47,823 bases of DNA from Parcubacteria group bacterium Licking1014_17 (GTDB taxonomy: Bacteria; Patescibacteriota; Minisyncoccia; 2-02-FULL-40-12; IGHO2-01-FULL-4-A). This document shows, in pieces, positions 15,125 through 44,599 of this stretch. The stretch covers positions 72,717-120,539 of the forward strand of contig VMGJ01000004.1 in the NCBI GenBank assembly GCA_007376485.1, in the 5' to 3' direction. Numbering within the stretch: the stretch's first letter is position 1; each line of letters starts with the position of its first letter. The notes under the pieces are model-generated. The model made no database searches. It was not told the origin of the DNA and saw nothing but the letters and a program-made list of their open reading frames with translations. Position numbers and translations under genes: made by a program.

Positions 15125-17455
15125 TCATTTAAACGATTCTACTTTAGCATATAAGCTTTTCTGAAACGCGAAGAAAACAGAGCGTATATCCTCTACCCCA
15201 CCCAATGCCTCTTCCGCATCAGCAATAGCGTGGTACTTCAGATTTAAAAGGATTGGCAATTTTTCCTCATCAAGTTCTTCCACGCCTCTGTCTTCATATT
15301 TTGCCAGCACGAATTCCAAAAATTCTTTTTGCCGCGCGTCTAACCCTTCAAAAATCTTTGCTCTCGCTTGTTCTACTCTTTGCTTCCTTGTAATCGGTTG
15401 AGTTACGAAAGAAATATACGCCAAAACATCAAACAGATCACTTTGCTCCGCGTTTATCATTTTTTGCAGTGTTTCTAACTCATCCTTGCCATAGCCAAGC
15501 GTACTGATTTTTTCCAAAAAAGTTTTCCGTGTTATGGGATTAGACCAGATTTTGCGAAGCTCTTCTTCGCTCTTGAAAAACTCAGGCAATGCTCCAAACA
15601 TATTATCCATAAATTCTTTTACAGAAATCGGCTTACCGTCCGCGCTCCAAAACGAGGTGGTAATCATATGCTGAATCTCTCGCTCCTTGCCGTCACGTAG
15701 CTTGATTAATAATGTTTTCATAGGTTCTTCTGGCGGTTCGGGTGGGAGTGGTAACTCTTTCGGTTCTTCGAGTTCTTTTGATTTGCGTGGTTCTTTCTCT
15801 GTAGTTTGATCTATCGGCTCGCCATCCCATTCAGGATCAGAAAAATGATGATAAGCATTTACAAAATCAAGGATCGTAAAGTATTCTTTGCCATCAAAAA
15901 GACGGGTGCCACGTCCAATAATCTGCTTAAACTCGATCATAGAATTAACTGGCCGCATCAAAACGATGTTCCGGATGTTGCGCGCGTCCACGCCTGTCGA
16001 AAGCTTTTGCGAAGTGGTCAAAATTGTAGGGATTGTTTTCTCGTTGTCCTGAAACTCACGCAAATATTGCTCACCACGGGTGCCGTCATTGGCAGTTACA
16101 CGTACGCAATAATTCGGTGCTTTGCTTATCTTGAATTGATTTATTAAATCCCGAACGGCAAGGGCGTGATCTTGTGTGGCACAGAACACGATCGTTTTTT
16201 CATTCTGGTTTATTTCGCTTAACATTATCTTTACCCGTTTTGCTTCCCGTGCCTTAATCTTAATGATTCTATTAAAATCTTCTTCCTGGTAAATTTTACC
16301 TTCTTCAACCTCGCCCTCAATAATCTGGTCATCGGATGTGTAGACGTACTCATCCAAAGTGGTCTGAATTCGCTTAACTTTAAATGGCGTCAGAAAGCCA
16401 TCATTGACTCCTTCCTTTAGTGAGTAGATATAGACCGGATCGCCAAAATATTTGTAGGTATTAACATTGTCTTTTCTTTTTGGTGTTGCAGTCAAGCCGA
16501 GCTGTACGGCCGGAGAAAAGTATTCCAAAATGCCACGCCAATTGCTTTCATCATTTGCGCCGCCGCGATGACATTCATCTATAATAATAAAGTCAAAAAA
16601 GTCCGGCGGATAATCACCAAAATACGGCGTATCGCCAGGCCCGCTCATAAATGTTTGAAAAATGGTAAAGAAAACGCTTCCGTTCGTGGGTACGCCGCCC
16701 TTCTTTCTTATATCTAATGGATTAATCCTTACCAGCGTATCCTCTGGAAATGCCGTGAAAGTATTATATGCCTGATCAGCGAGGATATTTCTATCGGCAA
16801 GAAAAAGAATTCTCGGCCGTCTCCCGCCGTCACATTGCAAGGTCCACCTTGTTTGATATAGCTTCCATGAAATCTGAAACGCGATCGCTGTTTTTCCAGT
16901 GCCAGTAGCAAGTGTTAGTAAAATTCGTTTTTTATTTTCGGCTATGGCGTTAGTGGCATTATTAATAGCTATCTCTTGGTAGTATCGCTTTCCAAGCTCT
17001 CCTTCTAATGGAATAGAAGCAAATTTTTCTTTCCATTTGTTTTGACCTGCCTCGCCGGCGGGCGGGTCAGAATAAACGGTATTCCACAGCTCTTCCGGTG
17101 TCGGGAATTTCTCTATGTAGCCCTCCTTACCGGTTTTCATTGATATCTGGTAAATCTCTTTGCCGTTAGTCGCATATGTGTGCTCGATCTTCAATTTCTC
17201 GGCGTAGGCTTTGGCTTGTGCGACACCCTCGGTTGCCGACAAGTTTTCTTGTTTGGCTTCAATCACTGCCAATTTCTGATTTTTGAAAACTAAGATATAG
17301 TCGGCAATTTCCGGCTTGGCTCGTATTCCGCCAGTCAAAATGCGCCCTTCGGTAATGCGAAACTCCCGAAGAATTTTTGATCCTTCTACTTCACCCCAGC
17401 CGCTCGCTTTTAACTTTGGATCAATATATTCGGCTCTTGTTTCCGCCTCATTCAT
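15125..17455 (-). CDS. hsdR: Type I restriction enzyme R subunit (EcoEI-like)
   Basis: ADY..VIEAK nuclease motif, ATGTGKT, DECHRG, LTATP and QIIGRGTR; ATG at 17455 overlaps the fic stop (ATGA). Confidence 0.95.
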   Translation of the reverse strand: MNEAETRAEYIDPKLKASGWGEVEGSKILREFRITEGRILTGGIRAKPEIADYILVFKNQKLAVIEAKQENLSATEGVAQAKAYAEKLKIEHTYATNGKEIYQISMKTGKEGYIEKFPTPEELWNTVYSDPPAGEAGQNKWKEKFASIPLEGELGKRYYQEIAINNATNAIAENKKRILLTLATGTGKTAIAFQISWKLYQTRWTLQCDGGRRPRILFLADRNILADQAYNTFTAFPEDTLVRINPLDIRKKGGVPTNGSVFFTIFQTFMSGPGDTPYFGDYPPDFFDFIIIDECHRGGANDESNWRGILEYFSPAVQLGLTATPKRKDNVNTYKYFGDPVYIYSLKEGVNDGFLTPFKVKRIQTTLDEYVYTSDDQIIEGEVEEGKIYQEEDFNRIIKIKAREAKRVKIMLSEINQNEKTIVFCATQDHALAVRDLINQFKISKAPNYCVRVTANDGTRGEQYLREFQDNEKTIPTILTTSQKLSTGVDARNIRNIVLMRPVNSMIEFKQIIGRGTRLFDGKEYFTILDFVNAYHHFSDPEWDGEPIDQTTEKEPRKSKELEEPKELPLPPEPPEEPMKTLLIKLRDGKEREIQHMITTSFWSADGKPISVKEFMDNMFGALPEFFKSEEELRKIWSNPITRKTFLEKISTLGYGKDELETLQKMINAEQSDLFDVLAYISFVTQPITRKQRVEQARAKIFEGLDARQKEFLEFVLAKYEDRGVEELDEEKLPILLNLKYHAIADAEEALGGVEDIRSVFFAFQKSLYAKVESFK
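17046..17066. repeat. 21-bp GC palindrome inserted in frame in hsdR (PPAGEAG)
   Basis: CCTGCCTCGCCGGCGGGCGGG; related to 44283-44303. Confidence 0.7.
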
Positions 17456-18324
17456 ACGCCAATTTTCCAAACATTCTTTTCCAGAAAAGCTTCGATGGTT
17501 TGGCGATTAGCTTTATTGATGAGATTCGAATGGGAGAGTTTCTTGCTCTTTGCGTACTCAGCGAGCGTCATAATTTTCTTGCCTTCTAAATACGCTAATC
17601 GCTTATGGTAGCTATTTGTGAGCGCTTTCCCTACGATTTCTTCCATAAGATCGGCTTTATTTTTTAGATCAAACTCTCTAAATGCTTCGTAGTATCTTTT
17701 TCGATCAATGAATTTGATATTAATGGAAACAAATCCCTCCCGAATCAGCAAATAATTGTTGATGACGCGTCCAATACGACCATTGCCGTCAATGAATGGG
17801 TGGGCATACTCAAACCCAAGATGCAATCGCGCGATACGCTTGATAATATTTTCGTGACTTGTTGCATGATACTCCGCAAGCATCTTTTTAAGACGATCTT
17901 GTGACTCTTGCGGACTTGGGGATATGTGAGTTCCGATACGGACATATTCATCATTCATGCGAAATCTTCCGGCAATGTCATCACGGATATTCGAAATCAG
18001 CATTTTATGAAGTGATAAAATGACTTCAAGAGAAAGCTCTTGCTCTTTAGCTCTCGTATCAATATAACTGACGACACGCGCAAGGTTTTTTGCCTCAAAA
18101 ATTTCACGTTGACTGATATATCTATCCAAGTCAATTTGGAGAAGAATCTTTTCCGTTTCCTCAAGCGTCAGTGTGCTGTTTTCGATAGCGTTGGAGTTGT
18201 AAACCTGCTCGGCAACTTCTGCTTCTGATATAAGCTTAATAAGCGCATCCTTGCCTATGGAAGCCTTATAGTATCTCTCGCGGAGAGAACTTATCTTACT
18301 GTATACATTGAGTGTTTTTGCCAT
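17452..18324 (-). CDS. Fic family protein with an N-terminal inhibitory motif and a C-terminal HTH-like tail
   Basis: HPFIDGNGRIGR catalytic motif; SNAIEN matches (S/T)xxxE(G/N). Confidence 0.92.
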   Translation of the reverse strand: MAKTLNVYSKISSLRERYYKASIGKDALIKLISEAEVAEQVYNSNAIENSTLTLEETEKILLQIDLDRYISQREIFEAKNLARVVSYIDTRAKEQELSLEVILSLHKMLISNIRDDIAGRFRMNDEYVRIGTHISPSPQESQDRLKKMLAEYHATSHENIIKRIARLHLGFEYAHPFIDGNGRIGRVINNYLLIREGFVSINIKFIDRKRYYEAFREFDLKNKADLMEEIVGKALTNSYHKRLAYLEGKKIMTLAEYAKSKKLSHSNLINKANRQTIEAFLEKNVWKIGV

Positions 18325-18332
18325 ATATTGGT

Positions 18333-18361
18333 ATTCTAATCTTTCTTCACTCTTTTGTCAA
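18333..18361 (-). promoter_or_regulatory. Internal sigma70 promoter for fic-hsdR-TIR
   Basis: TTGACA-17-TAGAAT, 8 nt before the fic ATG; inverted repeat CGTGAAA..TTTCACG just upstream (18368-18402). Confidence 0.65.
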
Positions 18362-18409
18362 CATAATCGTGAAAAGTGTAAGCAAATCACCATGCTTTCA
18401 CGGTTATGA

Positions 18410-19612
18410 CTACAATTTCCCCAAAAATGCCTCTTTCAGCACAGATTTTTTAAGCTCTTCCAAATCTGCTAGCTTTTTGCGATATACCTCCTCCAGTTTC
18501 CTCGTCTCCCCCGCCAACCCATCAAGCTTCTTGACGATGGACTTTTGCTCGGAAAGTGGCGGCAAGAATATTTTATGTTTTTCTATCTTCTCGATCGTTA
18601 AGGCATTGTATGCCGAGCCTTGCGATAACTTCTTTATCTTTTCAACGAATGACATCAAAACAAATTTCATAAAGTACGAATCCGCGGAATCAAAATCCTT
18701 GAACCAAAGTACGTTCCCATCCTTAAAATAGAACTCCTCATTTTTTCCAACCACATAGATCTCACCGATTGTTCCCACGGCAGTCATAAGAATGTCGCCC
18801 TCCAATGGCACACCGAAAACATTTTTAATTTCAGAATATCTTTTTTTAGAAATGAATAACTCCACTGATATATCATGTCCGTTAGCCAGTTCCTTAATCT
18901 CCTTGATTCGATAAAATGGCACACCCTCTTTTACATATTCTTTCTTATAGATTCTCTTGCTTGATGTGATTTGCCCCAGTTCTTCAAGTCTCTTCTCTGC
19001 CCATCCCTTCCCCGGATTCGCAAACGCACCTTGTAAATATGACTCGAAAAGCTCGCGGGCGTTGCGCAAATTCTTTTCCGCATTCTCCTTCGCCTTCTCC
19101 ACCCCCTCAAAAACCTCATCCAACTTCCCTACAATCCGCCTCTGCTCGGCGATCGACGGGAGTGGGATTTCGATCATTCCTAAATTCTTCCGGCTAATTC
19201 TTTTTCTCGTTGTACCCGATGTTTTAGATTCAACATCTTGCAAATATTGATTTGTTTGTAAGTAGTAGTTAAAAAAATGCGGTAGTACTGCCTTATCTAG
19301 TCTTAAAATACTACAATCGACAGCTGTGATCATCTTCTCTTTAATATCAGGAATGACGCAAGCCCTACCGACAGGATCAGGTAAGCGCGACACCAAAATG
19401 TCGCCAGGCATTATTTCTGTGCATTTTAATCTTTTGAACGTCTTTTCAGAAATGTATCTCGCCTTTCCTCCCCTGTTTTTAAAAATTCCATTTCCTATAT
19501 TACCAGTTTGAATAAGCCGAATCCCTTCGTCTGATTGATCCTTGCTTTCAATCCAATTGCCGTCGGTAAAGAAATCACAAACCTCGCCAAGTTTTTTGGT
19601 TCGCCAGGTCAT
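18410..19612 (-). CDS. hsdS: Type I R-M specificity subunit
   Basis: Two TRDs; W..KKLGEVC, IPLPSIAEQRRIV, LPPLSEQK.IV and LKKSVLKEAF.GKL. Confidence 0.95.
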   Translation of the reverse strand: MTWRTKKLGEVCDFFTDGNWIESKDQSDEGIRLIQTGNIGNGIFKNRGGKARYISEKTFKRLKCTEIMPGDILVSRLPDPVGRACVIPDIKEKMITAVDCSILRLDKAVLPHFFNYYLQTNQYLQDVESKTSGTTRKRISRKNLGMIEIPLPSIAEQRRIVGKLDEVFEGVEKAKENAEKNLRNARELFESYLQGAFANPGKGWAEKRLEELGQITSSKRIYKKEYVKEGVPFYRIKEIKELANGHDISVELFISKKRYSEIKNVFGVPLEGDILMTAVGTIGEIYVVGKNEEFYFKDGNVLWFKDFDSADSYFMKFVLMSFVEKIKKLSQGSAYNALTIEKIEKHKIFLPPLSEQKSIVKKLDGLAGETRKLEEVYRKKLADLEELKKSVLKEAFLGKL

Positions 19613-19959
19613 TATTTAGGGGTTAACTGAGTGGCAAATTGATCCAATGATGCCACTTTCTTAATCTTTCCATTATAGACTCGCGACCTATAGTACAGAG
19701 CGACCACCGCACTGATTATTGCCAAAAAGGTAAAAGCGAACGCACTCCATAAAAGAGATGGGCTTTTGGCGCTCGTAATATACGCCGTCCAAAATCCTAC
19801 AGCGATGGAAAGCGAAATTGAAGCAAGTGAGAAAAAAACTTCATAATGACGAAGTTCATTCCCCTGTACAAGTTCTATTTGTACGCAAGAAGGTAAATAA
19901 ACCTCTACGGAAGTTTCATTTTTTGTTGCACCTGTTTTGGTTTTAATGGTTTGCTTCAA
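19612..19959 (-). CDS. Hypothetical membrane protein with two TM helices
   Basis: Two hydrophobic stretches (VFFSLASISLSIAVGFW; LLWSAFAFTFLAIISAVVALYY); stop coupled to the hsdS start. Confidence 0.75.
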   Translation of the reverse strand: MKQTIKTKTGATKNETSVEVYLPSCVQIELVQGNELRHYEVFFSLASISLSIAVGFWTAYITSAKSPSLLWSAFAFTFLAIISAVVALYYRSRVYNGKIKKVASLDQFATQLTPK

Positions 19960-19966
19960 GATAACG

Positions 19967-20401
19967 TTATTTAGTAAGTTCGGTCTCTACTATATTTTCT
20001 CCGGTTGCAGTTAGTTCCCATGCTTTCTTTGAATCTTTTTTTTCTTCTGCCTCCATAATACGGCCTCCGCGGATATTCATGTTTATTTTGTCATTAATAT
20101 TTAGCGGTAATGGAATCTTTGCTAAACGGAAGGCTTTTTTCAGATCATCAGTGTTAAACGGCATTATATTCTCCATATGTTCAATAAAGTATGCAATTAC
20201 TAGTGTACGCTTAACGTCATCGTCCACTTTTTTTGTCATAAGAAATTCCTTAATCGACAATTTCTTAATGTTACCCTGCGAGATAGTGGGCTCGTTACTA
20301 CTGAGCTGATTTTTTTCTAGTTTTTCAATCCTTTTTTCAATTCGTTGTTCAAATTTATCCATACGCGCCAATATTTTATGTTCAAAATCGTTATTCTCCA
20401 T
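19967..20401 (-). CDS. Hypothetical protein: N-terminal coiled coil plus a probable winged helix
   Basis: Ends W.LT.TGE, typical of wHTH wings; tight operon spacing. Confidence 0.7.
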   Translation of the reverse strand: MENNDFEHKILARMDKFEQRIEKRIEKLEKNQLSSNEPTISQGNIKKLSIKEFLMTKKVDDDVKRTLVIAYFIEHMENIMPFNTDDLKKAFRLAKIPLPLNINDKINMNIRGGRIMEAEEKKDSKKAWELTATGENIVETELTK

Positions 20402-20402
20402 A

Positions 20403-20798
20403 TTATTGTTGATTATTTTTTTTAAATCGTGCTATGACCCGTAGAAGTTTATAATTGGGCAAATAGTATTGGCCCTTGTCAGACTTAATATCCTTTGATT
20501 CAAGAAGTTTTTTTAGAGTGTTTTTGATACTTCCCTCTGGTGCAATTTCCAATTTGATAATTTCCAGTGGCGTAATCTTTTCATCTGAACCAAGAACAAG
20601 ACTTCTTGCCTTTACGGCACAGAGCACGATAAGAATTCTGTCAGCGTTTGTTAGTTCAAGAAACGTTCCTGAAAAATCAAAAGATTGTGTCTCCTTATTT
20701 ATTGACAAATATGGAGACAGCAAATCTGCGAGAGCCTGCCTATCGACCGCCTGTGATTCACTAACAATCAATTTTTGAAGTGGGTCTGATTGATTCAT
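20403..20798 (-). CDS. Hypothetical protein, probable winged helix
   Basis: ITPLEI...PEGSIKNTLKKL....I.SDKGQYYL pattern. Confidence 0.7.
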   Translation of the reverse strand: MNQSDPLQKLIVSESQAVDRQALADLLSPYLSINKETQSFDFSGTFLELTNADRILIVLCAVKARSLVLGSDEKITPLEIIKLEIAPEGSIKNTLKKLLESKDIKSDKGQYYLPNYKLLRVIARFKKNNQQ

Positions 20799-20920
20799 AA
20801 TTTTTAGTTATTTTTTACTCTCATAATTACTATTGTACTCCTGCATAGAAATAAATCAAGTCTTATATAAGTGACTTTCGCATTGAAATAGTTTTTATGT
20901 TCGCGGCTCCTGTAAGTACA

Positions 20921-20954
20921 ACAAAAAAACCCTTATATATAAGGGTTTTTTTGT
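20921..20954. terminator. Perfect 34-bp palindrome downstream of hsdM
   Basis: ACAAAAAAACCCTTATA|TATAAGGGTTTTTTTGT. Confidence 0.65.
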
Positions 20955-20997
20955 CATAATCCTTAGACACTCTAAGTCTGTAATAGTAACTGTATTT

Positions 20998-22452
20998 TTA
21001 CACCATTGATGCTATCTTTTCTAAGTTATCCACAGCCTCTGCATCTAACATCTTTATTTCTTTCAAAAGCTCTTTTGGACTTCGTAGTGCCACTTCCCCA
21101 CTTTTGTTGGGGTTTTTGACGGAGAGGTCGAAGGTGGTGGGGTCGATTTTGGAGGCGTCCACGCTCCATGAATTCTCGGAGTCGGTTTTGGTTTTTTGGA
21201 GATTTACGAAGTCGGCAAGATCGGATTCGTTGAGCGGATTGGTTTTGCCAAGATTGCGGGAAAGATTAAGCTGATAGTACCAGATTTTCTTGGTTGGCGC
21301 GCCTTTTTCAAAAAACAAGATTACTGTTTTGACACCGGCACCGGCAAAGACACCGCCGGGCAGATCAAGCACAGTGTGGAGATTGCAGCTTTCAAGGAGT
21401 AACTTGCGCAAACTGACCGAGGCATTGTCGGTGTTGGAAAGAAAAGTATTTTTAATAACGATACCCGCTTTGCCACCGGCTTTAAGAATTTTTACAAAAT
21501 GCTGGAGGAATAGAAATGCCGTCTCGCCGGTTTTGATGGGAAAGTTCTGTTGAATTTCTCTTCCTATGCCGGCGCCGAAAGGCGGATTTGCCAGAATAAT
21601 ATCATAGCGGTGTTTTTCTTGAATGTCGTTTATGTTTTCTGCAAGGGTGTTGGTATGAAGAATATTCGGGGCTTCAATGCCATGCAGAATCATATTCATT
21701 ACGCCGATAATATAAGCAAGTGATTTTATTTCTTTGCCATAGAATGTGTCTTTTTGAAGTTTTACTGATTCAGCAGTCGATAAATCATTACTTTTCTTCA
21801 GATAGTCAAAAGCCTCCACAAGAAAACCCGCCGAGCCACACGCGCCATCGTAAATCTTGTTGCCAACTTTGGGCGCAACTACTTTAACAATTGCCTTAAT
21901 GAGCGGCCGGGGCGTGTAATACTCTCCGCCGTTGCGGCCGGCATTACCCATCTTTTTAATTTTCTCTTCGTAAAGATGGGAAAGCTCATGTTTTTCATGG
22001 TCGGTACGAAAGTGCATACCGTCAACAATATCCAAAACCTCGCGAAGTCTGTATCCGCTCTGTATCTTATTTTTCAGCTCAATAAATATCTCGCCGATTT
22101 TGTATTCAATAGTGTCCGGGCTGTCGGCTTCTGCTCTGAATTTTTTCAGATATGGGAATAGTTTGTCATTCACGAAATCTCTTAAATCATCGCTCGTGAG
22201 CGCTTTATTATGATCCAGCTTGCCGTCGGCTGTTTTTGGTTCGACCCACGCCTCCCAGCGATATTGCGGGGCGATAATAAATTCGTGCTTCTTGCCGGCA
22301 AGCGCCGCTTCAGTCTTTTTAGTCTGCTCTAAATCATCAAGATATTTCAAGAAAAGAATCCATGAAGTTTGCTCGATATAATCAAGCTCGGTGGCGCATC
22401 CCGCGTCCCGGTGCAGTATATCATCTATATTTTTGAAAGATTGTTCAAACAT
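20998..22452 (-). CDS. hsdM: Type I R-M N6-adenine methyltransferase subunit
   Basis: GEYYTPR, YDGACGSAGFL and LANPPF motifs. Confidence 0.96.
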   Translation of the reverse strand: MFEQSFKNIDDILHRDAGCATELDYIEQTSWILFLKYLDDLEQTKKTEAALAGKKHEFIIAPQYRWEAWVEPKTADGKLDHNKALTSDDLRDFVNDKLFPYLKKFRAEADSPDTIEYKIGEIFIELKNKIQSGYRLREVLDIVDGMHFRTDHEKHELSHLYEEKIKKMGNAGRNGGEYYTPRPLIKAIVKVVAPKVGNKIYDGACGSAGFLVEAFDYLKKSNDLSTAESVKLQKDTFYGKEIKSLAYIIGVMNMILHGIEAPNILHTNTLAENINDIQEKHRYDIILANPPFGAGIGREIQQNFPIKTGETAFLFLQHFVKILKAGGKAGIVIKNTFLSNTDNASVSLRKLLLESCNLHTVLDLPGGVFAGAGVKTVILFFEKGAPTKKIWYYQLNLSRNLGKTNPLNESDLADFVNLQKTKTDSENSWSVDASKIDPTTFDLSVKNPNKSGEVALRSPKELLKEIKMLDAEAVDNLEKIASMV

Positions 22453-22673
22453 AGGGATTAAAAACGACGTCAGATACTTTTTCCCTTATTTGTCGGCATT
22501 TTACCTCATTTCCGGGAAATTTTCAATGGTGATTTTTATCTTAATGCATTTCGGACTGGCCAGGACAAAAAAGATGTTAATATTTTCCTGTTCAGAGATC
22601 CCCTATTTTCTTGACCCCTCAAAACAAAAATTGGCAAAAATGCCAATTATAAGGGGGGTGGTTGGTTTTTTGT

Positions 22674-23267
22674 TTATTGTTGTTTAATTAATCGGATAAG
22701 TTCGGGAAATTCTTTCTGGTTGAAATGCCCGCGGTCTTTAAATATGATCGCCTTGGCTTTTGGCAGTTGTTTCCGAAACGCTGCGAGCTCACTGAACGGA
22801 ACAGAGGGGTCGTCTTTGCTGTGAAAAAGGTAAATATTTTTTGTTTGTTCACTTATCTTTTTTAGAGATTTCGGAAGTAAAAAATCCCCTATGTCCTCGG
22901 TTCTATTGTGTGGTGAAGCAATAAGAAACAACTTCTTAATCCGCTTTGGAAAATCATTTTCCGCTAAATATTTTGCGAGAAACATCCCGCCGAGAGAATG
23001 ACCGATAAGAATAACCTCACCATTTAAGAATGGGAACATTCTCTCAAACCAAATTTTCCATTCTTCATATCGGGCGTTCGTTTTATTCGGCATTCGCGGC
23101 ATGAGAACGTCATAACTTTTTCCAAGCTTTTGAGGTAATGTCACCTTCCAGTCCTTATAGTGCCTAAATTTATCAATAGTGACTTCCCAATTTTTGAGTG
23201 ATGAGATGTATTCTTTATAGGTATTAAACGAATCCCCGCCCTGAATTACTATAATTTGTTTTGCCAT
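22674..23267 (-). CDS. RBBP9/YdeN family alpha/beta hydrolase
   Basis: GHSLGG, HSKDDPSVP and GHF catalytic triad motifs. Confidence 0.9.
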   Translation of the reverse strand: MAKQIIVIQGGDSFNTYKEYISSLKNWEVTIDKFRHYKDWKVTLPQKLGKSYDVLMPRMPNKTNARYEEWKIWFERMFPFLNGEVILIGHSLGGMFLAKYLAENDFPKRIKKLFLIASPHNRTEDIGDFLLPKSLKKISEQTKNIYLFHSKDDPSVPFSELAAFRKQLPKAKAIIFKDRGHFNQKEFPELIRLIKQQ

Positions 23268-23288
23268 AAATTTATTTAACTAGACTAC

Positions 23289-23395
23289 CCCGAAAAATAC
23301 AAGCGAGCCGACTTTTTTGAGGGCTCTTGAGATTGCCGCCTTTCCAATCGGGGAATGTGTCTTTAAGCAGTACAGCGAGCCAGTTGGCGGACTGC
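23289..23395 (+). repeat. Truncated or miniature tandem-G.A family element D
   Basis: 23352-23385 matches 37931-37964 at 32/34; 23289-23323 forms CCC-GA-AAAA..TTTT-GA-GGG. Confidence 0.7.
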
Positions 23396-24085: not shown

Positions 24086-24151
24086 AATGGTAGCCCCTTA
24101 CATGCGGATGCTTCAGATATTTCATCGGCAGCATTCGCATGAAAAGGAAAT

Positions 24152-24613: not shown

Positions 24614-24618
24614 AAACT

Positions 24619-24840: not shown

Positions 24841-24892
24841 AGTCAGCCAAATCTAACACAGCTTGAACCGATTTACAAGCGTTTGAGAAAAA

Positions 24893-30830: not shown

Positions 30831-31340
30831 CTATTTTATCTGCGCGAAAAGAATGACATAATTTTTGCCGTAAACTTTGGCGCACTTCGGGCAGGTAGTA
30901 TAGGAAAAATAAATCTTTTTCAGTTCTTTCCCTTGGTTTTTTACGTACTTTTGCATTTCTATCGCCCATTTGCCCGCGTCCTTATAGGGTCCCTCAAAAA
31001 CTTTTGTTAGGAATGTGCCTGAAATGGTTGCCATTTGCGCGCCCGGAACTTCTTTTGAGACATCAATATAAATATCGGCGCCCCAAGGGGATTTTTCGTC
31101 GGTGAGCATTAATTGGTAAGGCGCTTTGGCCCCCGCTTTTTCAATCAATCCCATGTTTTTTACAATCTTCTTTCCCATATTCAAGGGAATATGCAAAAAA
31201 CTCATAACATGGTCTTTGACGAAGACTTTATTTTCCCAGACTATCTCTTTCACCTGTCCTGAGCCGGTCGAAGGATCCTGCCACGGCTCTGGGTTAAACA
31301 GCTCACAGCAGCCAGTGGACTTTGTTGTTTGGTTTTCCAT
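30831..31340 (-). CDS. Conserved hypothetical protein (GyrI-like fold plausible; C-terminal CPKC)
   Basis: CC..F.PEPW, FEGPYK and YTTCPKCAK.YGKNY. Confidence 0.75.
   Translation of the reverse strand: MENQTTKSTGCCELFNPEPWQDPSTGSGQVKEIVWENKVFVKDHVMSFLHIPLNMGKKIVKNMGLIEKAGAKAPYQLMLTDEKSPWGADIYIDVSKEVPGAQMATISGTFLTKVFEGPYKDAGKWAIEMQKYVKNQGKELKKIYFSYTTCPKCAKVYGKNYVILFAQIK
31253..31274 (-). repeat. REP-like element inserted in frame (PSTGSGQ)
   Basis: CCTTCGACCGGCTCAGGACAGG within WQD-PSTGSGQV-KEI. Confidence 0.7.
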
Positions 31341-35605: not shown

Positions 35606-35622
35606 ACCCGTATGTTTTGAAA

Positions 35623-37251: not shown

Positions 37252-37253
37252 TT

Positions 37254-37805
37254 TTATTTTTGGCTGAAATCAACTTTGACGACTTCGCGCTCCTTTTCGC
37301 CGATTTCAAAGAATTCTTCTTTCTGGAAGCCCATCATTGAGGCGATAATATTTGTCGGAATTGTCTGAATTTTGGTGTTGTAAACCAGAACGTTGGAGTT
37401 GTAGAACCTGCGGGCAGCCTGGATTTTATTTTCGGTGTCGGACAGCTCTTCCTGAAGTTTCATGAAGTTCTCGGAAGCGCGGAGAGTCGGATACGCTTCG
37501 GCGACGGCGAACAAGCTCTTGAGGGTACTACTCAACGCGTTTTCGGCTTTCATTTTTTCTCCGACTGTCGTCGCGCTCATGGCGGCGGCGCGGGCTACCG
37601 TAACGTTTTCGAAAACTTGTTTTTCGTGAGCCGCGTAACCCTTCACGGTTTCAACCAAATTCGGGATCAAATCATAGCGGCGTTTCAGCTGGACGTCTAT
37701 GTCCGACCATGATTCTTTGACGCGATTCCGGCTTCTGACGAGCGTATTATACGAAAGCACGAGCCAGAGAGCTATGACGACAATAATTGCGGCGATGATT
37801 GGCAT
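37254..37805 (-). CDS. lemA: LemA family protein
   Basis: [28 protein letters not shown] and E.YP.L.A.ENF. Confidence 0.96.
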
Positions 37806-37926
37806 ATTATTATTGGCACATGACGCCTTTTAAAAAGCGGCATGCGAGTTATTTTTAATAACATTTAGTATAATCCTATCCATCCCGCGTGGCAACACTT
37901 AGTATAAGCGGATAATTTCCTACTTA

Positions 37927-38056
37927 TGAAGGAATGTGTCTTTGAGCAGTATAGCGAGCCAGTTTTGCTTGGTCTCCCGAAGGGAGAAAACTGGCGAGGT
38001 ATAAGTGAAGGCTTCGCCGGAAAGCCCGAACATCTGCGAAAAGATGTATTCCTTCA
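37927..38056 (+). repeat. Palindromic element C (tandem-G.A hairpin family)
   Basis: TGAAGGAATGTGTCTTT-GA-GCAG / CTGC-GA-AAAGATGTATTCCTTCA; inner stem GCCAGTTTT/AAAACTGGC. Confidence 0.8.
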
Positions 38057-38067
38057 GTTGCGGCCTG

Positions 38068-39258
38068 TTATTCGTAGCTTAATTTCTCAACCGTTAAATC
38101 GACTTCCCGCGCGATTTGTCCCAGTTCGTCGGTTTTGATGACGAGTATTTTTACCGGCGCGCCGTCTTTTTGAATTTCTCCTTCGCCGTCCGTTTTGGAT
38201 TCGTTTTTCTTGTCGTCGAGAATTATCCCCAAAGCATCCAGACCGGCACAGATTTTTTTTCGCATGTAGGACGAACGTTCGCCGATGGTAGCCGTGAAAA
38301 CAAGGGCATCTAGACCGTTAAGCGCCGCGAAGTAGGCGCCGATATATTTTTTAACCCTGTAAGCGAACATACCCAAAGCCAGAACTCCCCTTTCGTCGCC
38401 GGTCTTATCCAGTTCTATAAGCTCGCGCACGTCGGAAGTCAGCCCGCTCACGCCCCTTAGTCCGCACTGAAAATTCAAAAATTCTTCCATTTTTTCGGGA
38501 GACATTTTCAGTTCTTTTTGAAGATGAAGAATTAAGCCGGCATCTATATCGCCCGGGCGGGTGCCCATAACCAAGCCCTCAAGCGGCGTGAAACCCATTG
38601 AGGTATCCACGGATTTGCCGTTTTTAATCGCGGCTATACTGGCTCCGCTGCCGAGATGGCAAATAACCATTTTCTCCGGTGTTTTTTTGTACATTTCTTC
38701 CACTTTCCGTAAAACTGAAGCATAAGAGGTGCCGTGAAAGCCGTATCTTTGCGGCTTGTGCTGGTCTGGAATGTTTTGGGGAATCGCGTAAAGGCGAGCA
38801 TAATCCGGAATCGTAGCATGAAAACTTGTGTCAAAAACCGCTATCTGCGGGATATTCGGCAACAAGCCGGCGAATATTTTTATTTCTTTGATGGCGGGAG
38901 CGTTGTGGAGCGGCGCCATCGGTATCAACGCCTCAAGTTCTTTAATGATTTTTTCGTCAATTACCAGCGGCTGGCGGTTGGTTCCGCCGTGAACTACCCT
39001 GAAGCCGATGGCGGTTATCATTGAAACATCCAAAAGCAGATTTTCCCTGACGATTAATTTTAGAACCTCCTCGGCCGAATTTTTGTATTCTTCCGGCGTA
39101 ACATCAAAGGATTTTTTATTTTCCTTGATTTTAACTTCCAGAATGTAATCTTTGCCGACGGTTTCGTAATGGGCAATAAGCGCCAACTCGCCCTCGCGAT
39201 AGAGAGCGTATTTTTTTGACGCGCTTCCGGTATTTACAATGAGATAATTTTTCCCCAT
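38068..39258 (-). CDS. ackA: Acetate kinase
   Basis: N.GS.S.K, RVVHGG, APLHN, YGFHG, HLGSGAS and DTSMGFTPLEG motifs. Confidence 0.96.
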   Translation of the reverse strand: MGKNYLIVNTGSASKKYALYREGELALIAHYETVGKDYILEVKIKENKKSFDVTPEEYKNSAEEVLKLIVRENLLLDVSMITAIGFRVVHGGTNRQPLVIDEKIIKELEALIPMAPLHNAPAIKEIKIFAGLLPNIPQIAVFDTSFHATIPDYARLYAIPQNIPDQHKPQRYGFHGTSYASVLRKVEEMYKKTPEKMVICHLGSGASIAAIKNGKSVDTSMGFTPLEGLVMGTRPGDIDAGLILHLQKELKMSPEKMEEFLNFQCGLRGVSGLTSDVRELIELDKTGDERGVLALGMFAYRVKKYIGAYFAALNGLDALVFTATIGERSSYMRKKICAGLDALGIILDDKKNESKTDGEGEIQKDGAPVKILVIKTDELGQIAREVDLTVEKLSYE

Positions 39259-39267
39259 TTTATTTCC

Positions 39268-39331
39268 ATCCCGGACAAAGCAAGAAACCTCCGGTTTCTG
39301 CCGAAATTATATTTCAGTCTTCGTACGGGAC
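39268..39331. repeat. 64-bp three-way-junction repeat, copy 2, overlapping the xfp 3' end
   Basis: Similar to 9790-9853; contains the xfp stop codon. Confidence 0.8.
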
Positions 39332-41652
39332 CACTTCCAATTCGTAATTTCTTCCTGGTCCTCGCCATGCGCGATGGCATAATCCCTATGCTCCCGTATT
39401 TTTTGGGTGTATTCGGAAGTCAGCCGCTCGGCTTTTGCCTGTTCAACAACTCCTTTCGCTTTCATAAACTCTATTGCCTGGATAACCAAATGAAATCTGC
39501 TTGTCCGATTTCTTAATTGCATATCAAAAGGAGTCGTCGTTGAACCCTGGTCGCGGTAGCCGTTGACCAAAGTCCATCTCCGGTCGCACATTTTGAAAAA
39601 AGCGTGTTCGGCGATTGCCGGATAGCCGTAAAAATTAACAATTACCGGCTTGTCGGGGGCGAAATATCCGGCAAACTCTTCTTTAGTCAGCGGATCTTTT
39701 TCCCTGCCCAAACCCAATGTCGTCAACTGGGAAACATTTACGAATCTTATTTTAATTTCCGGAGCGGTTTCTTTGAGAATGCTTATCGCGGCCAAAACTT
39801 CTTTGGTTAAATAATCTCCGACGCCGCACATCACCAAATCGGGATTTTCTTCGCTGGCAAAATTCCAGGTCGCTATTCCCCGTTCAACATCGCGCTTGGC
39901 TTCTTCCATAGTCCGCCACTGCGGCTCCGGGGTTTTACCGGCAACCAAGAGATTCACCTCGTTCGTGCTTCTGAAGGCGTTGTCCATGGCAGCTAAAGTT
40001 GTGTTGGCGTCCGCCGGGAAATAGGCATTGACGAAATCCACGTGCTTTTCGAGCATTCCGCTGACAAAACCGGGGTTCTGGTGTGAAAAGCCGTTATGGT
40101 CCTGCCGCCAGCCCGGCGAAGTGAGAATATAAATGGTCGAAGCAATCGGATTGCGCCACGGATATTTTTTAGCTTCTTTTAAAAATTTTACGTGCTGGTC
40201 GGCCATGCTGGCAATCACCTCTATAAACGCCTCATAAGAAGCCAACGCCGCGTGGCGACCCGTGAGAATATAGCCCTCCATTAAGCCCTCCAATGTCTGC
40301 TCGCTCAAGAGCTCCATCACCCTTCCGTCGGGAGCCATATCTTTGTCCCATTTTTTGCCGGGCAGCACCCATGCTCTTTTGGTTTCTTCAAAAACGGCAT
40401 CAAGTTTGTTTGAGTATGTTTCGTCGGGAGAGAAAAGTCTGAAATTTTTTTCCTCTCTGTTGAGGGCGAAAATTCTTTTCATCATTTCGCCCAGAGCCTT
40501 CATACTGCTCGCTTCTTCCCTGCCGGGCGCCGATATTTTTATTTCAAGCTGGGACAAATCGGGCATCTTTAGCGGTTTGTAAATCTGACCGCTGAAAGCG
40601 TGGCGATTTTTGCCCATTCTTAAATCCCCTTCGGGCAGCAAATCTTTGATATCCTGGCAAAAACCCGTGTTTTCTTCGTATAATTCTTCGAACTTATAGC
40701 CGTGCAGCCATTTCTCGATTGTTTTCAGCGATGATTTGTTTGTTTTGGCGTCGGGGCAGACAACCTGATGTGAAGCGTAATTACCCTCAAGTTTTAATCC
40801 CTTGAATGATTTCGGGCCTGTCCAGCCTTTCGGGGTTTTGAGAATTATCATGGGCCAGCGCGGCTGGAACTGGACTTTTTCTTCACCCGCTTTTTTCTGG
40901 ATTTCTTTTATTTTCTGGTAAGCCGATTCAAAAACTTCCACCGCCTTTTCGAAAATCTTCGGGCTGAATTCAATTATCATGGGTTCATAGCCATAGCCGG
41001 TAAATAGCGCCTTGAGTTCGCGGTTGCTCATTCTGCCGAAAATTGTCGGTCCGGAAATTTTGTAGCCGTTCAAGTGCAGAATCGGAAGCACGGCGCCGTT
41101 GCCGGCGGGGTCAAGAAGCTTATTTGCGTGCCACGCGGCGGCAAGCGCTCCGGTTTCGGCTTCGCCGTCTCCAATAAGGCAGGCGGTAATCAGGTCGGGA
41201 TTATCCAAAACCGAGCCGAACGATGTCGAAAGCGAATAGCCCAACTCTCCGCCCTCGACAATCGCGCCCGGCGTTCCCGGATTTGAATGGCTGGGCGAAC
41301 CGTAGGGCCAGCTGAAACTTTTCGCCAGATAAGCGATGCCGTCGTAATCCCGCTTCGCTTTTTCGTCGTATTCTCCCAAAGTGCCCTCTATGAATAAATT
41401 AGAACGCAAGCCCGGATAACCGTGGCCCGGTCCGAGAACAAACATAATACTCGCGCTATATTTTTTAACCAGATACGCGAGATTAGCGTATGTAAAAGTA
41501 ATTCCCGGCACGCTCCCCCAGTGTCCCAAAAGCCGCGGTTTGATATGTTCTTTCTTGAGCGACTCTTTCAACAAAAAATTATCCTGCAGATAAATCTGAA
41601 CGGCTGACAGATAATTCGCCGCCCGGAAAAGCTTTTTGATATTTTCGATCAT
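39307..41652 (-). CDS. xfp: Xylulose-5-P/fructose-6-P phosphoketolase
   Basis: LLGHWG, GPGHG, EGGELGY, GDGEAETG and QDHNGFSHQNPGF motifs; start MIENIKK at 41652. Confidence 0.96.
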   Translation of the reverse strand: MIENIKKLFRAANYLSAVQIYLQDNFLLKESLKKEHIKPRLLGHWGSVPGITFTYANLAYLVKKYSASIMFVLGPGHGYPGLRSNLFIEGTLGEYDEKAKRDYDGIAYLAKSFSWPYGSPSHSNPGTPGAIVEGGELGYSLSTSFGSVLDNPDLITACLIGDGEAETGALAAAWHANKLLDPAGNGAVLPILHLNGYKISGPTIFGRMSNRELKALFTGYGYEPMIIEFSPKIFEKAVEVFESAYQKIKEIQKKAGEEKVQFQPRWPMIILKTPKGWTGPKSFKGLKLEGNYASHQVVCPDAKTNKSSLKTIEKWLHGYKFEELYEENTGFCQDIKDLLPEGDLRMGKNRHAFSGQIYKPLKMPDLSQLEIKISAPGREEASSMKALGEMMKRIFALNREEKNFRLFSPDETYSNKLDAVFEETKRAWVLPGKKWDKDMAPDGRVMELLSEQTLEGLMEGYILTGRHAALASYEAFIEVIASMADQHVKFLKEAKKYPWRNPIASTIYILTSPGWRQDHNGFSHQNPGFVSGMLEKHVDFVNAYFPADANTTLAAMDNAFRSTNEVNLLVAGKTPEPQWRTMEEAKRDVERGIATWNFASEENPDLVMCGVGDYLTKEVLAAISILKETAPEIKIRFVNVSQLTTLGLGREKDPLTKEEFAGYFAPDKPVIVNFYGYPAIAEHAFFKMCDRRWTLVNGYRDQGSTTTPFDMQLRNRTSRFHLVIQAIEFMKAKGVVEQAKAERLTSEYTQKIREHRDYAIAHGEDQEEITNWKWSRTKTEI

Positions 41653-41781
41653 ATAAACAATTATACCAGCAATTGAATTAATAAACACGGCGAGGTTGAC
41701 TTATACCACATGCCGGTTTATGCTGGTAGGCGGGTATTCGATGCCAGTCCTTTCAAAATTTACGCGAAAAAGGAGGAGACC

Positions 41782-42645
41782 ATGTTTCTTAATGAGTATT
41801 TGGATATCGAGTATTACAGGCAATCATATGGTGTAGACCTTTTTTCGGAAGGAGAGAGGAACACACCAACCATCGGCGTGAAAATTGATTCCCGTCATGT
41901 CTATCGCTTAAGTGTAGGGCTAAAAAGATTCGGGGAAGAGCATAAAAAGAACAGTAACTGGTCAATGAATTCGATCGATGAAAAAAATGAGCGGCGACTG
42001 CTTGTCAGGGCCGCACTGCCCGATGTTAATGAACTGGGAGATGGGTGCGCAGAGTGCGACGGCACCGGCGAAGATGAAGACGGTGCTGCGTGCCGCTTCT
42101 GCGAGGGTATGGGCTGCGAACACTTTGTAAACTACGCGATCGCCCACCAGTTTTTTGAAAGTTTGGGAAAGCTTTTCAATTTGTGCAATCGTTGGCAAGA
42201 CCATTATGACTTTTTCGTATTGGAACCGAAAAAACAGCTGATAGTCGTCAAATTATGGTTTGCCGCTACCGATGTTGTTGGTGGAAGTCGTGTCTATTCA
42301 ATCGGCGGCTATTTAAGCAGCATGTTGGAGGAGTGGATTTTCTCAAAAGTCGATGAAAAAAATTTCGCCGATAAAGTATCCCGTACCATGGGGGATATCC
42401 ACTACCACATATGCCAGCAAAGGATAAATTGTTCCTTGTTCATTGACGGGAAAGACCGTAGTTGGCAAATGACCTGCGGAGACCATGCCCTGATTCACTA
42501 CAATGCTATTTTTCCAGGTTCCGATTTAAAAAGGAGCAATCTCCTCAGATCGCATAATATAGAAAACCCCGTACACGCGCTGACGCTCTTTGGCGGTATC
42601 GCCGCTTTATGTAGTCTCGCCCGCGCTGAGGGCGTAGGTTGCTGA
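41782..42645 (+). CDS. Hypothetical protein with two CxxCxGxG repeats
   Basis: SD AAGGAGG before the ATG at 41782; CAECDGTG and CRFCEGMG. Confidence 0.7.
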   Translation: MFLNEYLDIEYYRQSYGVDLFSEGERNTPTIGVKIDSRHVYRLSVGLKRFGEEHKKNSNWSMNSIDEKNERRLLVRAALPDVNELGDGCAECDGTGEDEDGAACRFCEGMGCEHFVNYAIAHQFFESLGKLFNLCNRWQDHYDFFVLEPKKQLIVVKLWFAATDVVGGSRVYSIGGYLSSMLEEWIFSKVDEKNFADKVSRTMGDIHYHICQQRINCSLFIDGKDRSWQMTCGDHALIHYNAIFPGSDLKRSNLLRSHNIENPVHALTLFGGIAALCSLARAEGVGC

Positions 42646-42661
42646 ATTTGCTTCTTTTACG

Positions 42662-42692
42662 AAATTGCCCTCAACTAGAGGGCAATTTTTTT
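42662..42692 (+). terminator. Intrinsic terminator
   Basis: AAATTGCCCTC-aacta-GAGGGCAATTT followed by a T-run. Confidence 0.75.
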
Positions 42693-42750
42693 ACCAGCTT
42701 CCGCCTCCGCTACACAGTGGACAGCAAAAGGTGGTTTTTTTAATTGCCAA

Positions 42751-43497
42751 TTACCGGAATTTAATAGGTATTCTTATTTCGGCGGCGTTTTGAGGCAAGT
42801 CGGAAGGATTGTCTTTGACTAAAACCAAAGTTCCCTCGTCTGTCTGCGACACATTGAATTCAAGATTAGCCTCAAAGGGCACGAAGTTTTCCGTCATCCA
42901 GTCGGATTTTGCCGTAGCTTGGGTTTGGACAAATATGTTGCCGTCTCCGTCCAGTAATCTGACCGGGAATGACGCCTCAAAATACCAGGGACCCTTCGCT
43001 TCGCCTTTAATCACATATGGGCTTTTAATAACTTCCCCCAGGGTCGGCGAACTCACGCTAATCAAAGGATTTTGGACGAATAATTTCGAAACGGTAACCG
43101 TGCTGCCGGTTAGCGACCCCTCAACAATTAATCTGTCGCCGAGATTCCCGATATTCCATTTGGTGTCAAAGCAGGGCAGGTTGGTTATCCCCTGATTGCA
43201 GAAACTGCTGTCGTTGAATTTAAGAAATGCTTTCAGCGCCGGCTCGGGATCGCCGCCGGGTTCCTCGTAAAGCAAAGCCCATTGCTCACCACTGCCCTGC
43301 CCGGAAACGAGATTACCGTATTTTATGAACTTGCATTCTTCCGTGGGTTTCGGCGCGCTCGGATTGCCGTGCCTAACCCACTGGCCGTTGTCGCAAATCC
43401 AGGTATCCTCGTTCCCACCGATAAAAAACCTTATTCCAAACCACACCGCAATAACGAGCATGACGATTATCGCAACAACCGCTGTCTTTTTATTCAT
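42751..43497 (-). CDS. Membrane-anchored protein with a C-terminal Gmad2-like Ig domain
   Basis: N-terminal TM, EDTWIC..GQW..HG.P, G.WYFEASFPV and DNPS.LP motifs. Confidence 0.82.
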   Translation of the reverse strand: MNKKTAVVAIIVMLVIAVWFGIRFFIGGNEDTWICDNGQWVRHGNPSAPKPTEECKFIKYGNLVSGQGSGEQWALLYEEPGGDPEPALKAFLKFNDSSFCNQGITNLPCFDTKWNIGNLGDRLIVEGSLTGSTVTVSKLFVQNPLISVSSPTLGEVIKSPYVIKGEAKGPWYFEASFPVRLLDGDGNIFVQTQATAKSDWMTENFVPFEANLEFNVSQTDEGTLVLVKDNPSDLPQNAAEIRIPIKFR

Positions 43498-43600
43498 ATT
43501 AAATTGAGTTTATCTGAAGTTTTACGAAAAATCCACTTTTGATTCGGAGCTTAATTTAGACGCAGAAAAAAGTTTCGGGCTAGATTAGATCGGGGATGCC

Positions 43601-44599
43601 TCATTTGGTCATGATTATTTTTTTTGCCTTAATGGCATTTAGAATTTCTTTTACTTCGTCGAGGCTGGCTTCATCATGAATAGAGACGGCAATCGCTTTT
43701 TTGTTTATTTCTTGGAGTATTGAAATTTTCTTTTTGAGTTCGGCCGGAGACACCATATCGCTTTTGCTTAAAAATAGGTATTCTGCCTTTCCGGCCGATA
43801 ATTTGCTGTAATTTTCCAGCTCCCTTTTGACGATTCCGTAATCCGCGTCCGGATGTTCCGATTCGGCAGATATAAGATAGAAGAGAGCGCCCGTACGTTC
43901 AATGTGCTGAAGGAATTTTATACCCAATCCCTTGCCGGCTGAAGCACCCTCAATAAGCCCGGGGATGTCGGCTAAAATAAGCTCGTAATAGACGCCTAGG
44001 TTGGGTTCAAGGGTGGTAAAAGAATAATTGGCTACCTTGCTTTTCGCTCTGGTAAGTTCATTCAACAAACTAGATTTACCGGCGTTAGGCATGCCAATAA
44101 GTCCGACATCTGCGATGAGTTTAAGCTCAAAACGGATAGTAAATGACTCCCCCGGTTTGCCTTCGGTAAATTGTCTCGGGCTGGTATTCGTAGCGGACCT
44201 AAACTTAAAATTACCTATCCCGCCTTGCCCGCCCCTGGCTATGAGGAGCCTCTCGCCAATTTTCACGATTTCCCCCACTTCGCCTGCCTTGCCGGCAGGC
44301 AAACCTGTTTTAATCTTCGTAATAACCGTTCCTACTGGAATTTTAATCGTCAGATCTTTTCCGTTGCTTCCGTCTATGAATTGACCTCGCCCGCGTCCGC
44401 CATTTTCTGTTTTAACCTCTTTTTTATTTTTGAACTGCATCAGCATGCTTAGATCGGAAACTCCTTCACAGTAAACATCCCCACCTCTTCCGCCGTCTCC
44501 ACCAACAGGCCCGAGACTTTTTATATTTGTATTGAAGGCAACTGCTCCGTCTCCGCCATCTCCGGCATTAACCCTAATTGTAATATTATCAATAAGCAT
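43601..44599 (-). CDS. obgE: Obg/CgtA GTPase
   Basis: Gly-rich Obg fold; DVGLIGMPNAGKSSL, FTTLEPNLG, DIPGLIEGA and SKSD. Confidence 0.96.
   Translation of the reverse strand: MLIDNITIRVNAGDGGDGAVAFNTNIKSLGPVGGDGGRGGDVYCEGVSDLSMLMQFKNKKEVKTENGGRGRGQFIDGSNGKDLTIKIPVGTVITKIKTGLPAGKAGEVGEIVKIGERLLIARGGQGGIGNFKFRSATNTSPRQFTEGKPGESFTIRFELKLIADVGLIGMPNAGKSSLLNELTRAKSKVANYSFTTLEPNLGVYYELILADIPGLIEGASAGKGLGIKFLQHIERTGALFYLISAESEHPDADYGIVKRELENYSKLSAGKAEYLFLSKSDMVSPAELKKKISILQEINKKAIAVSIHDEASLDEVKEILNAIKAKKIIMTK
44283..44303. repeat. 21-bp GC palindrome inserted in frame in obgE (LPAGKAG)
   Basis: CCTGCCTTGCCGGCAGGCAAA; related to 17046-17066. Confidence 0.7.

Follow-up and report, generated by a model that had tools for sequence, protein, structure and literature searches.

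Seven-codon insertions in hsdR and obg of a Patescibacteria genome are probably copies of a very small palindromic repeat shared across phyla

Two genes in the 47,823-nt stretch of Parcubacteria group bacterium Licking1014_17 analysed here (contig VMGJ01000004.1, positions 72,717 to 120,539; hereafter the window) each contain a 21-bp in-frame insert: hsdR, encoding the R subunit of a type I restriction enzyme, and obg, encoding the Obg/CgtA GTPase. We confirmed that both inserts are exact seven-codon indels. Sequence comparison supports their being copies of one palindromic repeat family, related as DNA and not as protein, and likewise supports their being recent relative to near relatives. 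Matches in other genomes indicate that the family is dispersed, with many copies in many unrelated contexts, that near relatives differ in its presence or absence, and that it crosses phylum boundaries and occurs on viral contigs. We consider it probable that the inserts are a very small selfish palindromic repeat, which is simply translated when it falls in frame at a tolerant site, in a surface loop or between domains.

An earlier note on this DNA, made from the sequence alone, had read the hsdR context as YSD-PPAGEAG-QNKW and the obg context as KTG-LPAGKAG-EVGE, with 21-bp inserts in the same orientation and frame, and both sequence and translation bear this out (frame stretches ...YSDPPAGEAGQNKW... 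in hsdR and ...KTGLPAGKAGEVGE... in obg; Table 1). On the coding strand, the hsdR copy reads C CCG CCC GCC GGC GAG GCA GG and has one mismatch to the family 21-mer, and the obg copy reads T TTG CCT GCC GGC AAG GCA GG, with intact arms GCCTGCC/GGCAGGC. The 17-mer pattern that the two have in common, CCTGCCTYGCCGGCRGG, matched twice in the window against an expectation of 0.05, and none of 100 shuffles reached two matches. Within the host genome (790 kb on 11 contigs, ~44% GC) we found a third 21-mer at C3:19698, which is non-coding, lies 44 nt behind tRNA-Arg(ccg) and is identical to the hsdR copy at 26 of 28 nt. Two decayed 18-mers, at C6:968 and C8:47928, bring the family to three 21-mers and two decayed 18-mers in this genome; one of these 18-mers is translated as GLSVQAGE in an 896-codon frame and the other as GLPAQVG in a 138-codon frame. 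The proposal that hsdR and obg had received one micro-palindrome family thus gained support from additional copies in the same genome, as well as from dispersal within and between genomes.

The unit itself proved to be wider than the earlier note had described. Members of the family consist of 7-nt inverted arms, CCTGCCT/AGGCAGG, around a short variable centre of 4–7 nt, and they extend beyond this genome and phylum. The commonest form in the genomes listed is a perfect 20-nt palindrome, CCTGCCTGCCGGCAGGCAGG. The 21-mer, CCYGCCTGCCGGCRAGGCAGG, has a GCCGGC core plus one extra purine and is a minority form of the larger family. There is also an 18-mer form, CCTGCCTGCGCAGGCAGG, together with a few 19-mers and several 21-mers in which the extra base sits at differing off-centre positions.

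Exact indels were evident in both genes. Obg was compared with orthologues from 21 related genomes, and the seven residues were missing from 20 of these, one of which (L019) has an unrelated 4-aa insert at the site. The closest orthologue, in genome G023 (76% identity), carries a 6-residue insert, GLPA-QAG, at the same site, and its DNA is a perfect palindrome, GCCTGCCTGCGCAGGCAGGC, the 18-mer form. A public groundwater run (X3) yielded one contig, ~92% alike and at depth 3.5, in which exactly 21 letters are missing between 44273 and 44306, and so a near relative has an empty site; contigs from a second run (X1; 95–99% alike) end at 44251 and restart at 44401, which leaves the obg site outside their coverage, and runs X2 and X4 do not reach it. 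In a third gene, map, alignment with 17 orthologues shows an exact 7-residue insert made up of a 20-mer and one adjacent base.

For HsdR we examined the best 120 homologues. Ninety-nine fall short by precisely 7 residues at SD|QN, and two more have no family insert, so that it is missing from 101 of the 120; three others carry different inserts, and 16 have a family-like insert at the identical place. These 16 read PPAGEAG (six), LPAGKAG (three), LPTGQAG (two), and LPAGEAG, MPAGEAG, LSAGEAG, LPDGKAD and PPNGEAS (one each). The 16 nearest homologues, at 86–92% identity, are all empty. The window DNA here is TCT GA[C CCG CCC GCC GGC GAG GCA GG]T CAA, and empty relatives have TCC GAT CAA (L301) or TCA GAC CAA. 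The DNA of filled alleles comes from the window and from the metagenome locus L316, whose HsdR is 76% identical and where the canonical 21-mer occupies this very position in the nucleotide sequence. Among 80 HsdR loci from species genomes, the 7-aa family insert was present at none of the readable sites, and two had unrelated 4-aa inserts.

Both inserts occupy positions where a protein could be expected to tolerate extra residues. The HsdR insert lies in the linker separating the N-terminal nuclease domain (Pfam HSDR_N_2, residues 54–118) from the helicase domain (ResIII, 161–332). In Obg, whose Pfam domains are GTP1_OBG (3–161) and MMR_HSR1 (164–265), the insert comprises residues 100–106, inside the Obg fold. 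The earlier note had proposed mapping such inserts to surface loops of AlphaFold models, and in the Obg model, the one examined, the insert falls in a loop: it is coil between strands 91–96 and 108–110, with a predicted local distance difference test score (pLDDT) below 50 at residues 98–104 against a mean of 75 for the model overall.

We found the family well beyond the host genome. The 17-mer core gave 31 matches in 22 of the 105 genomes of the order and none with the reversed control pattern, and the looser pattern of the arms gave 410 copies in 65 of the 105, with up to 42 per genome; its reversed control matched in three genomes only, at 1–2 per strand. Across an even sample of 401 Patescibacteria genomes, the 21-mer (≤1 mismatch) was present in 53, with up to 30 copies, and its reversed control in none. 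With one genome per species, the exact 21-mer was found in at least 123 stretches. Among the 80 of them listed, 26 carry names of candidate phyla (Candidate Phyla Radiation, CPR) and 28 carry Bacteroidota names; Agriterribacter humi YJ03, Arenibacter sp. P308M17 and Aureibaculum sp. in the latter set are isolates. A further 12 have the label 'uncultured Gammaproteobacteria' (quoted as given), ten are named for other phyla (Omnitrophota, Elusimicrobia, Planctomycetota, Nitrospirae, Spirochaetia, Ignavibacteriaceae, Endomicrobiales, WOR-1 and one Bathyarchaeota metagenome-assembled genome) and four are unnamed. On viral contigs we counted 40 stretches with the 20-mer and 11 with the 21-mer, the latter including two head-to-head dimers.

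Variation among the copies has a structure of its own. The two variable positions of the 21-mer show tight linkage across 165 unique copies (T..A in 74, C..G in 53, T..G in 35 and C..A in 3), and among the copies listed individual genomes are dominated by one variant: CCT..GAG in 9/9 copies of G379, CCC..GAG in 8/9 of G137 and the AAG type in 7/9 of G494. G023 carries mostly the 18-mer, with four more exact copies and one 1-mismatch variant beyond the one in obg. Linked positions and genome-specific dominant variants are what would be expected of locally amplifying sub-lineages. Across unrelated proteins, the DNA of the family is more conserved than the peptide.

Family peptides in the 120 HsdR homologues occur at a single place, residue 131 (database numbering) of a ~780-residue protein. 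When a tree was built with the insert removed first, the 16 filled sequences fell in 10–11 groups. Each filled group has an empty homologue that is closer to it than the nearest filled one of another group (for the window HsdR, 91.3% identity to the nearest empty and 82.6% to the nearest filled), and the flanking residues track the clade and are not common to filled alleles. The Obg site likewise holds the 21-mer in the host genome and the 18-mer in G023, and is empty in the contig ~92% alike. Beside these cases, we observed further same-site occupancy in an orthologous gene of ~450–490 codons, which carries a reverse-frame 21-mer (..GGPASPAGGHFTRTIAFG) in three genomes belonging to two families, always at one site and with differing subtypes (G059, G036 and G027; loci L036, L050 and L051).

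Recurrence of this kind could in principle reflect a single old insertion in each gene that was then inherited and precisely lost many times through replication slippage across the hairpin. Palindromes are generally known as deletion hot spots, the Obg inserts of the host genome and G023 have the site and the following residues EV in common, the HsdR variants PPAGEAG, LPAGEAG and LPAGKAG are separated by single transitions only, and a 1-nt repeat (C) flanks the insert of L316. Parsimony on the HsdR tree nevertheless places an empty state at the root with 10 changes, whereas a single gain would need 23 precise losses, and the HsdR homologues of other phyla are empty at the readable sites among the 80 loci. 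Flanking 1-nt repeats are not enriched (51 observed, 44.7 expected), the variant at a site matches the dominant variant of its own genome, as for the 18-mer in obg of G023, and loss after one insertion does not account for copies at hundreds of unrelated positions or in other phyla. We therefore regard ancient insertion with repeated loss as quite unlikely.

It is also conceivable that the repeats are footprints left by excision of a cut-and-paste transposon, the 20-mer being the joined outermost 10 nt of its inverted ends (CCTGCCTGCC...GGCAGGCAGG). Variable junctions would then yield the 18-, 19-, 20- and 21-nt forms, and the length does vary at or near the centre (18 as 9+9, 19 as 9+10, 20 as 10+10) with invariant arms and with copies scattered at low number. 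Solitary half-sites, however, were barely above chance in the host genome, where they were counted (9 exact 9-mers against 3.3 expected, two of them belonging to the decayed 18-mers), and no full-length element with these ends was found between paired copies or was evident in that genome. The 21-mer carries its extra base off-centre, and many phyla share that base, a sign of replicating lineages rather than random junctions; moreover, a copy in an essential gene would require an earlier transposon insertion in that gene. Both the footprint origin and the variable junctions that it invokes seem to us very unlikely.

If a frame-preservation filter acts on the repeats, copies inside genes should be limited to those that preserve the reading frame. 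We surveyed 55 copies from two copy-rich genomes, G048 and G089. Each of the nine 21-mers is spanned by an open frame of 153 codons or more and reads LPxxxAG (eight LPxGxAG and one LPGRQAG), and seven of these frames have a Pfam match (FemAB, PolA, L23, MraZ, class II ribonucleotide reductase (RNR), Wzy_C and Gmad2). Most of the 46 20-mers lie in short frames; six are inside or between Pfam domains of one frame, namely a GT4 glycosyltransferase, a Mur ligase, a transketolase, a pseudouridine synthase, Map and enolase, and they read LPAGRQ in five cases and CLPAGR in one. The net addition to genes is 18 or 21 nt in every case that could be measured (obg twice, hsdR and map). In-gene copies were thus seen only at a net length of 3n and mostly in the LPAGxAG or LPAGRQ frame, a frame free of Cys and stop codons. 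These lengths and the frame bias match the prediction of a frame-preservation filter, and selection for frame preservation is the likely cause of the pattern. The earlier note had proposed an active insertion process filtered in this way; the filter pattern is supported, and the activity is suggested only by the presence and absence of copies among near relatives. The contrast in length between copies inside and outside genes offers a natural read-out of selection on the reading frame.

The same frame preference, and the repeated filling of the HsdR and Obg sites, might be taken to mean that the peptide xPAGxAG is itself selected, as a convergent functional motif or as a favoured 7-residue loop. 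Other frames are nonetheless in use throughout. The 21-mer unit is stop-free in all six frames and every frame was seen in use: among 23 21-mers of the order with a spanning frame of at least 150 codons, 11 read LPAG/PPAG..AG, five the reverse PA(S/L)PAG and seven the other four frames. Of 123 species-genome loci examined, 71 are not open across the copy and the remaining 52 divide as 20, 14, 6, 5, 4 and 3 over the six frames. The C3 copy stands behind a tRNA gene, DNA is conserved beyond peptide, as described above, and the inserts sit in poorly ordered loops and linkers. Selection of the peptide as a general explanation is accordingly highly improbable; positive selection for the insert at the HsdR site in particular could still be what makes that site a hot spot. 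Chance resemblance or an assembly or sequencing artefact, which the small copy number in the host genome (three 21-mers) might have suggested, can be practically dismissed, given that shuffled and reversed-pattern controls gave almost no matches, that the same insert recurs at the same codon in independently assembled homologues and with decayed variants, and that isolate genomes carry copies.

We favour, then, a selfish palindromic repeat that would spread by way of a single-stranded hairpin; the enzyme moving it in trans would be one encoded elsewhere than next to the copies. Insertion or retention would be strongly site-biased, and a copy landing in a gene would be kept if its net length were 3n and it lay in a loop or linker, where it would be translated. 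For 156 of 167 unique copies, direct repeats of 0–4 nt in the flanks are as frequent as expected from shuffling, which gives no sign of a target-site duplication, and none was seen when filled and empty hsdR, obg and map sites were compared. The sole signal in the flanks, from a logo of 165 copies, is a purine at −1 in 91%, with no fixed tetranucleotide.

The earlier note had asked for a linked mobilising enzyme; one was sought at large serine recombinase loci, at loci of tyrosine (Y1) transposases and among genes between paired copies, and was not found at any of these. The C3 copy drew attention to a large serine recombinase: a gene for one is enclosed there by a perfect inverted repeat of at least 99 nt, and the copy sits at the outer edge of that repeat. 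We rejected the enzyme as the mobiliser, given that a copy was present at only two of the 30 large serine recombinase loci in the order (98.6 kb), one of them the starting case. Y1_Tnp matches are present in 53 of the 105 genomes of the order. Linkage of the family to a Y1 or REP-associated tyrosine transposase (RAYT; REP, repetitive extragenic palindrome) was unsupported, with neither a statistical association across the 105 genomes nor bracketing by the family at 20 Y1 loci; such an enzyme could still act in trans. Y1 genes of ~220–250 codons were found closely enclosed by paired copies of other perfect palindromes (L545 1273-2015, L560 1272-1975 and L558 1265-1793), indicating that REP/RAYT-like systems operate in these genomes. 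One example of such a bracketing palindrome is a 24-nt one in G048, and the layout resembles a REPtron. Between paired copies of the present family we found an orphan 137-aa gene (in 1 of 105 genomes), rpsP/glmS and others, a gene that we take to resemble YraN, and a 174-aa ORF of a viral contig. Because of the palindromic form, the missing duplications, the dimers and the Y1 genes bracketed by other palindromes, our guess for the mobiliser is a REP/RAYT-like or IS200-like Y1 transposase acting in trans on a single-stranded hairpin, a tentative guess to which we give rather less than even credence.

Several observations weigh against a selfish repeat spread in this manner. No insertion event was observed, and precise hairpin-mediated loss could mimic gain. 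The filling of one HsdR site in 10–11 lineages, and of no other site in that protein, is hard to fit to untargeted insertion. Eleven of the 167 copies are embedded in tandem heptamer arrays that continue to either side with perfect 7-nt repeats, a setting that the model leaves unexplained. Genes between paired copies have no common partner. Presence of Y1 is not associated with presence of the palindrome (35 carriers with and 30 without, 18 non-carriers with and 22 without; Fisher p = 0.43), and G009, G089, G095 and G038, four of the seven copy-richest genomes, have no Y1 match. At 20 Y1 loci of palindrome-rich genomes, two hold a copy ~500–650 nt from the Y1 match and none is bracketed by two, and none of five palindrome-bearing viral records has a Y1 match; the Y1 search covered this order and these five records. 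Finally, the GTAG or CGTC tag of REP families is absent from the unit and from the flanks in the logo of 165 copies.

The use of one HsdR site could come from targeting, from positive selection for a loop there, or from very short-patch transfer, which our data do not tell apart. A bolder version of the selfish-repeat reading is that of a ~20-nt cross-phylum 'nano-transposon' with a homing-like choice of the same nucleotide position in orthologues, for both HsdR and Obg. We consider this rather unlikely. Were it true, it would imply a mechanism of targeting or templating undescribed for REPs, Rickettsia palindromic elements (RPEs) or miniature inverted-repeat transposable elements (MITEs), and a trans-acting agent, perhaps phage-borne, encoded away from the repeats. 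Cultured isolates carry copies, and thus both mobility and the cause of the hot spot are testable at the bench.

Table 1. Positions of the two window copies, their host genes and the recombinase gene near the third copy
Feature	Position	Strand	Remarks
21-nt repeat copy in hsdR	17046..17066	-	window letters CCTGCCTCGCCGGCGGGCGGG; translation PPAGEAG
21-nt repeat copy in obg	44283..44303	-	window letters CCTGCCTTGCCGGCAGGCAAA; translation LPAGKAG
hsdR, EcoAI/FtnUII-type type I restriction R subunit	15125..17470	-	781-codon open frame; NCBIfam NF046051 831 bits
obg, Obg/CgtA GTPase, short form 332 aa	43601..44599	-	NCBIfam ObgE/CgtA 333 bits, 1.8e-99
Segment with a large serine recombinase gene (Resolvase + Recombinase + Zn_ribbon_recom), by tRNA-Arg(ccg)	G000:C3:19698-21333 (L031 4581-6334)		G000 is the host genome; contig ends inside second repeat/palindrome

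Some further features of these loci deserve mention. The true start of hsdR is likely an ATG five codons inside the listed TTG, and the database copy of HsdR is 776 aa. The C3 recombinase segment may be invertible or mobile; the host genome has eight paralogues of the large serine recombinase, one of them just upstream of the window (C7:71172-72395), and many paralogues in relatives lie 75–300 nt from contig ends. The copies within heptamer arrays come from several phyla (L186, L200, L204, L210, L214, L216, L224, L232, L251, L294 and L297), with arrays such as (GAAATTG)n, (GATTTCG)n, (GACTTTG)n and (GAAATTA)n, and on the viral contig L567 heptamer arrays adjoin 20-mers at 315-360 and 911-1021. 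Obg may not be universal in this lineage: with this query, a near-full-length match was obtained in 22 of 40 genomes (G001–G040), plus one fragment at a contig end, and G003, G004 and G016, rated 100% complete, gave only weak matches to other GTPases. The earlier note had also counted four coding insertions in 48 kb by adding a PSTGSG family, a tally that our data bear out only in part. One exact PSTGSG site is present (31257-31274, minus strand, within a 169-codon frame at 30831-31340), the only one in the window, and it belongs to a different, 24-nt family, which has 20 copies at ≤4 mismatches in the host genome, including tandem arrays on contig C5.

No paper was found that contains any of four sequences of the family, or that links RPE-like or in-frame palindromes to the CPR or Patescibacteria, and the REP topic returned Di Nocera et al. 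2013 (PMC3733652) only. In-frame palindromic repeats in intact genes are already known, from RPEs and intragenic REPs; what is new here is a very small family that crosses phyla. Copies lie in frame in intact ORFs of Obg, HsdR, Map, Mur ligase, transketolase, RNR, PolA and L23. If the family moves, it would be among the smallest mobile DNA units and a steady source of 6–7-residue loop insertions. Exact indels of this kind can mislead orthologue alignments, and assemblies may break at the palindromes.

By form, the repeat comes close to REPs. At 18–21 nt, with 7-nt perfect arms and a 20-mer that is a perfect palindrome, it has the makeup of a REP palindromic unit. Di Nocera et al. (2013; PMC3733652) treat GTAG- or CGTC-tagged REP superfamilies and 'intragenic REPs' of several species, and describe ~20–40 bp palindromes that are mostly intergenic, with some in genes still encoding known proteins. 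The present family likewise has copies in intact genes; its location otherwise depends on the form, most of the 46 20-mers of G048 and G089 being outside confirmed genes and all nine 21-mers in long open frames. The paper also mentions RPEs as background and reports no obvious correlation of tyrosine transposase genes with the repeats, which agrees with what we found. REPs and the present family are further alike in occurring as singletons and head-to-head dimers and in lacking a target duplication. The family differs from REP/RAYT systems in that our search turned up no RAYT gene flanked on both sides by this palindrome and in that Y1 presence is uncorrelated, and REP families are mostly species- or genus-specific, whereas this one crosses phyla and is tightly 3n in genes. 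Elements derived from IS200/IS605 use a fixed 4–5 nt target without duplication and show a strand bias relative to replication; here there is no duplication either, and only the purine at −1.

Yeast mitochondrial GC clusters are short GC-rich mobile palindromes in an AT-rich genome, some of them in frame in genes. They differ in being organellar and eukaryotic, in measuring tens of bp and in having a target preference of their own, and we know of no sequence relation between them and the present family. MITEs, which make target-site duplications, resemble it in being non-autonomous, dispersed elements with inverted ends, presumably moved in trans. PMC3733652 gives MITEs as 70–300 bp with 15–30 bp terminal repeats, whereas the whole unit is 18–21 nt here and 156 of 167 copies have no duplication.

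The closest parallel in behaviour is offered by RPEs. Like an RPE, the present repeat is a selfish palindrome that sits in frame in genes, including housekeeping genes, and is translated as an extra surface segment with the host protein left intact. RPEs, said to have been described by Ogata et al. in 2000, are ~100–150 bp and confined to Rickettsia, and to our knowledge selfish repeats translated inside essential proteins are textbook matter for Rickettsia only. Against that size, the present unit measures 18–21 nt, adds 6–7 residues and is identical in Patescibacteria, Bacteroidota, other phyla and viral contigs. The behaviour of an RPE is seen here at a unit size of 18–21 nt, and the hosts in these ultra-small bacteria include a restriction enzyme, many housekeeping genes and Obg, a GTPase generally counted as essential.

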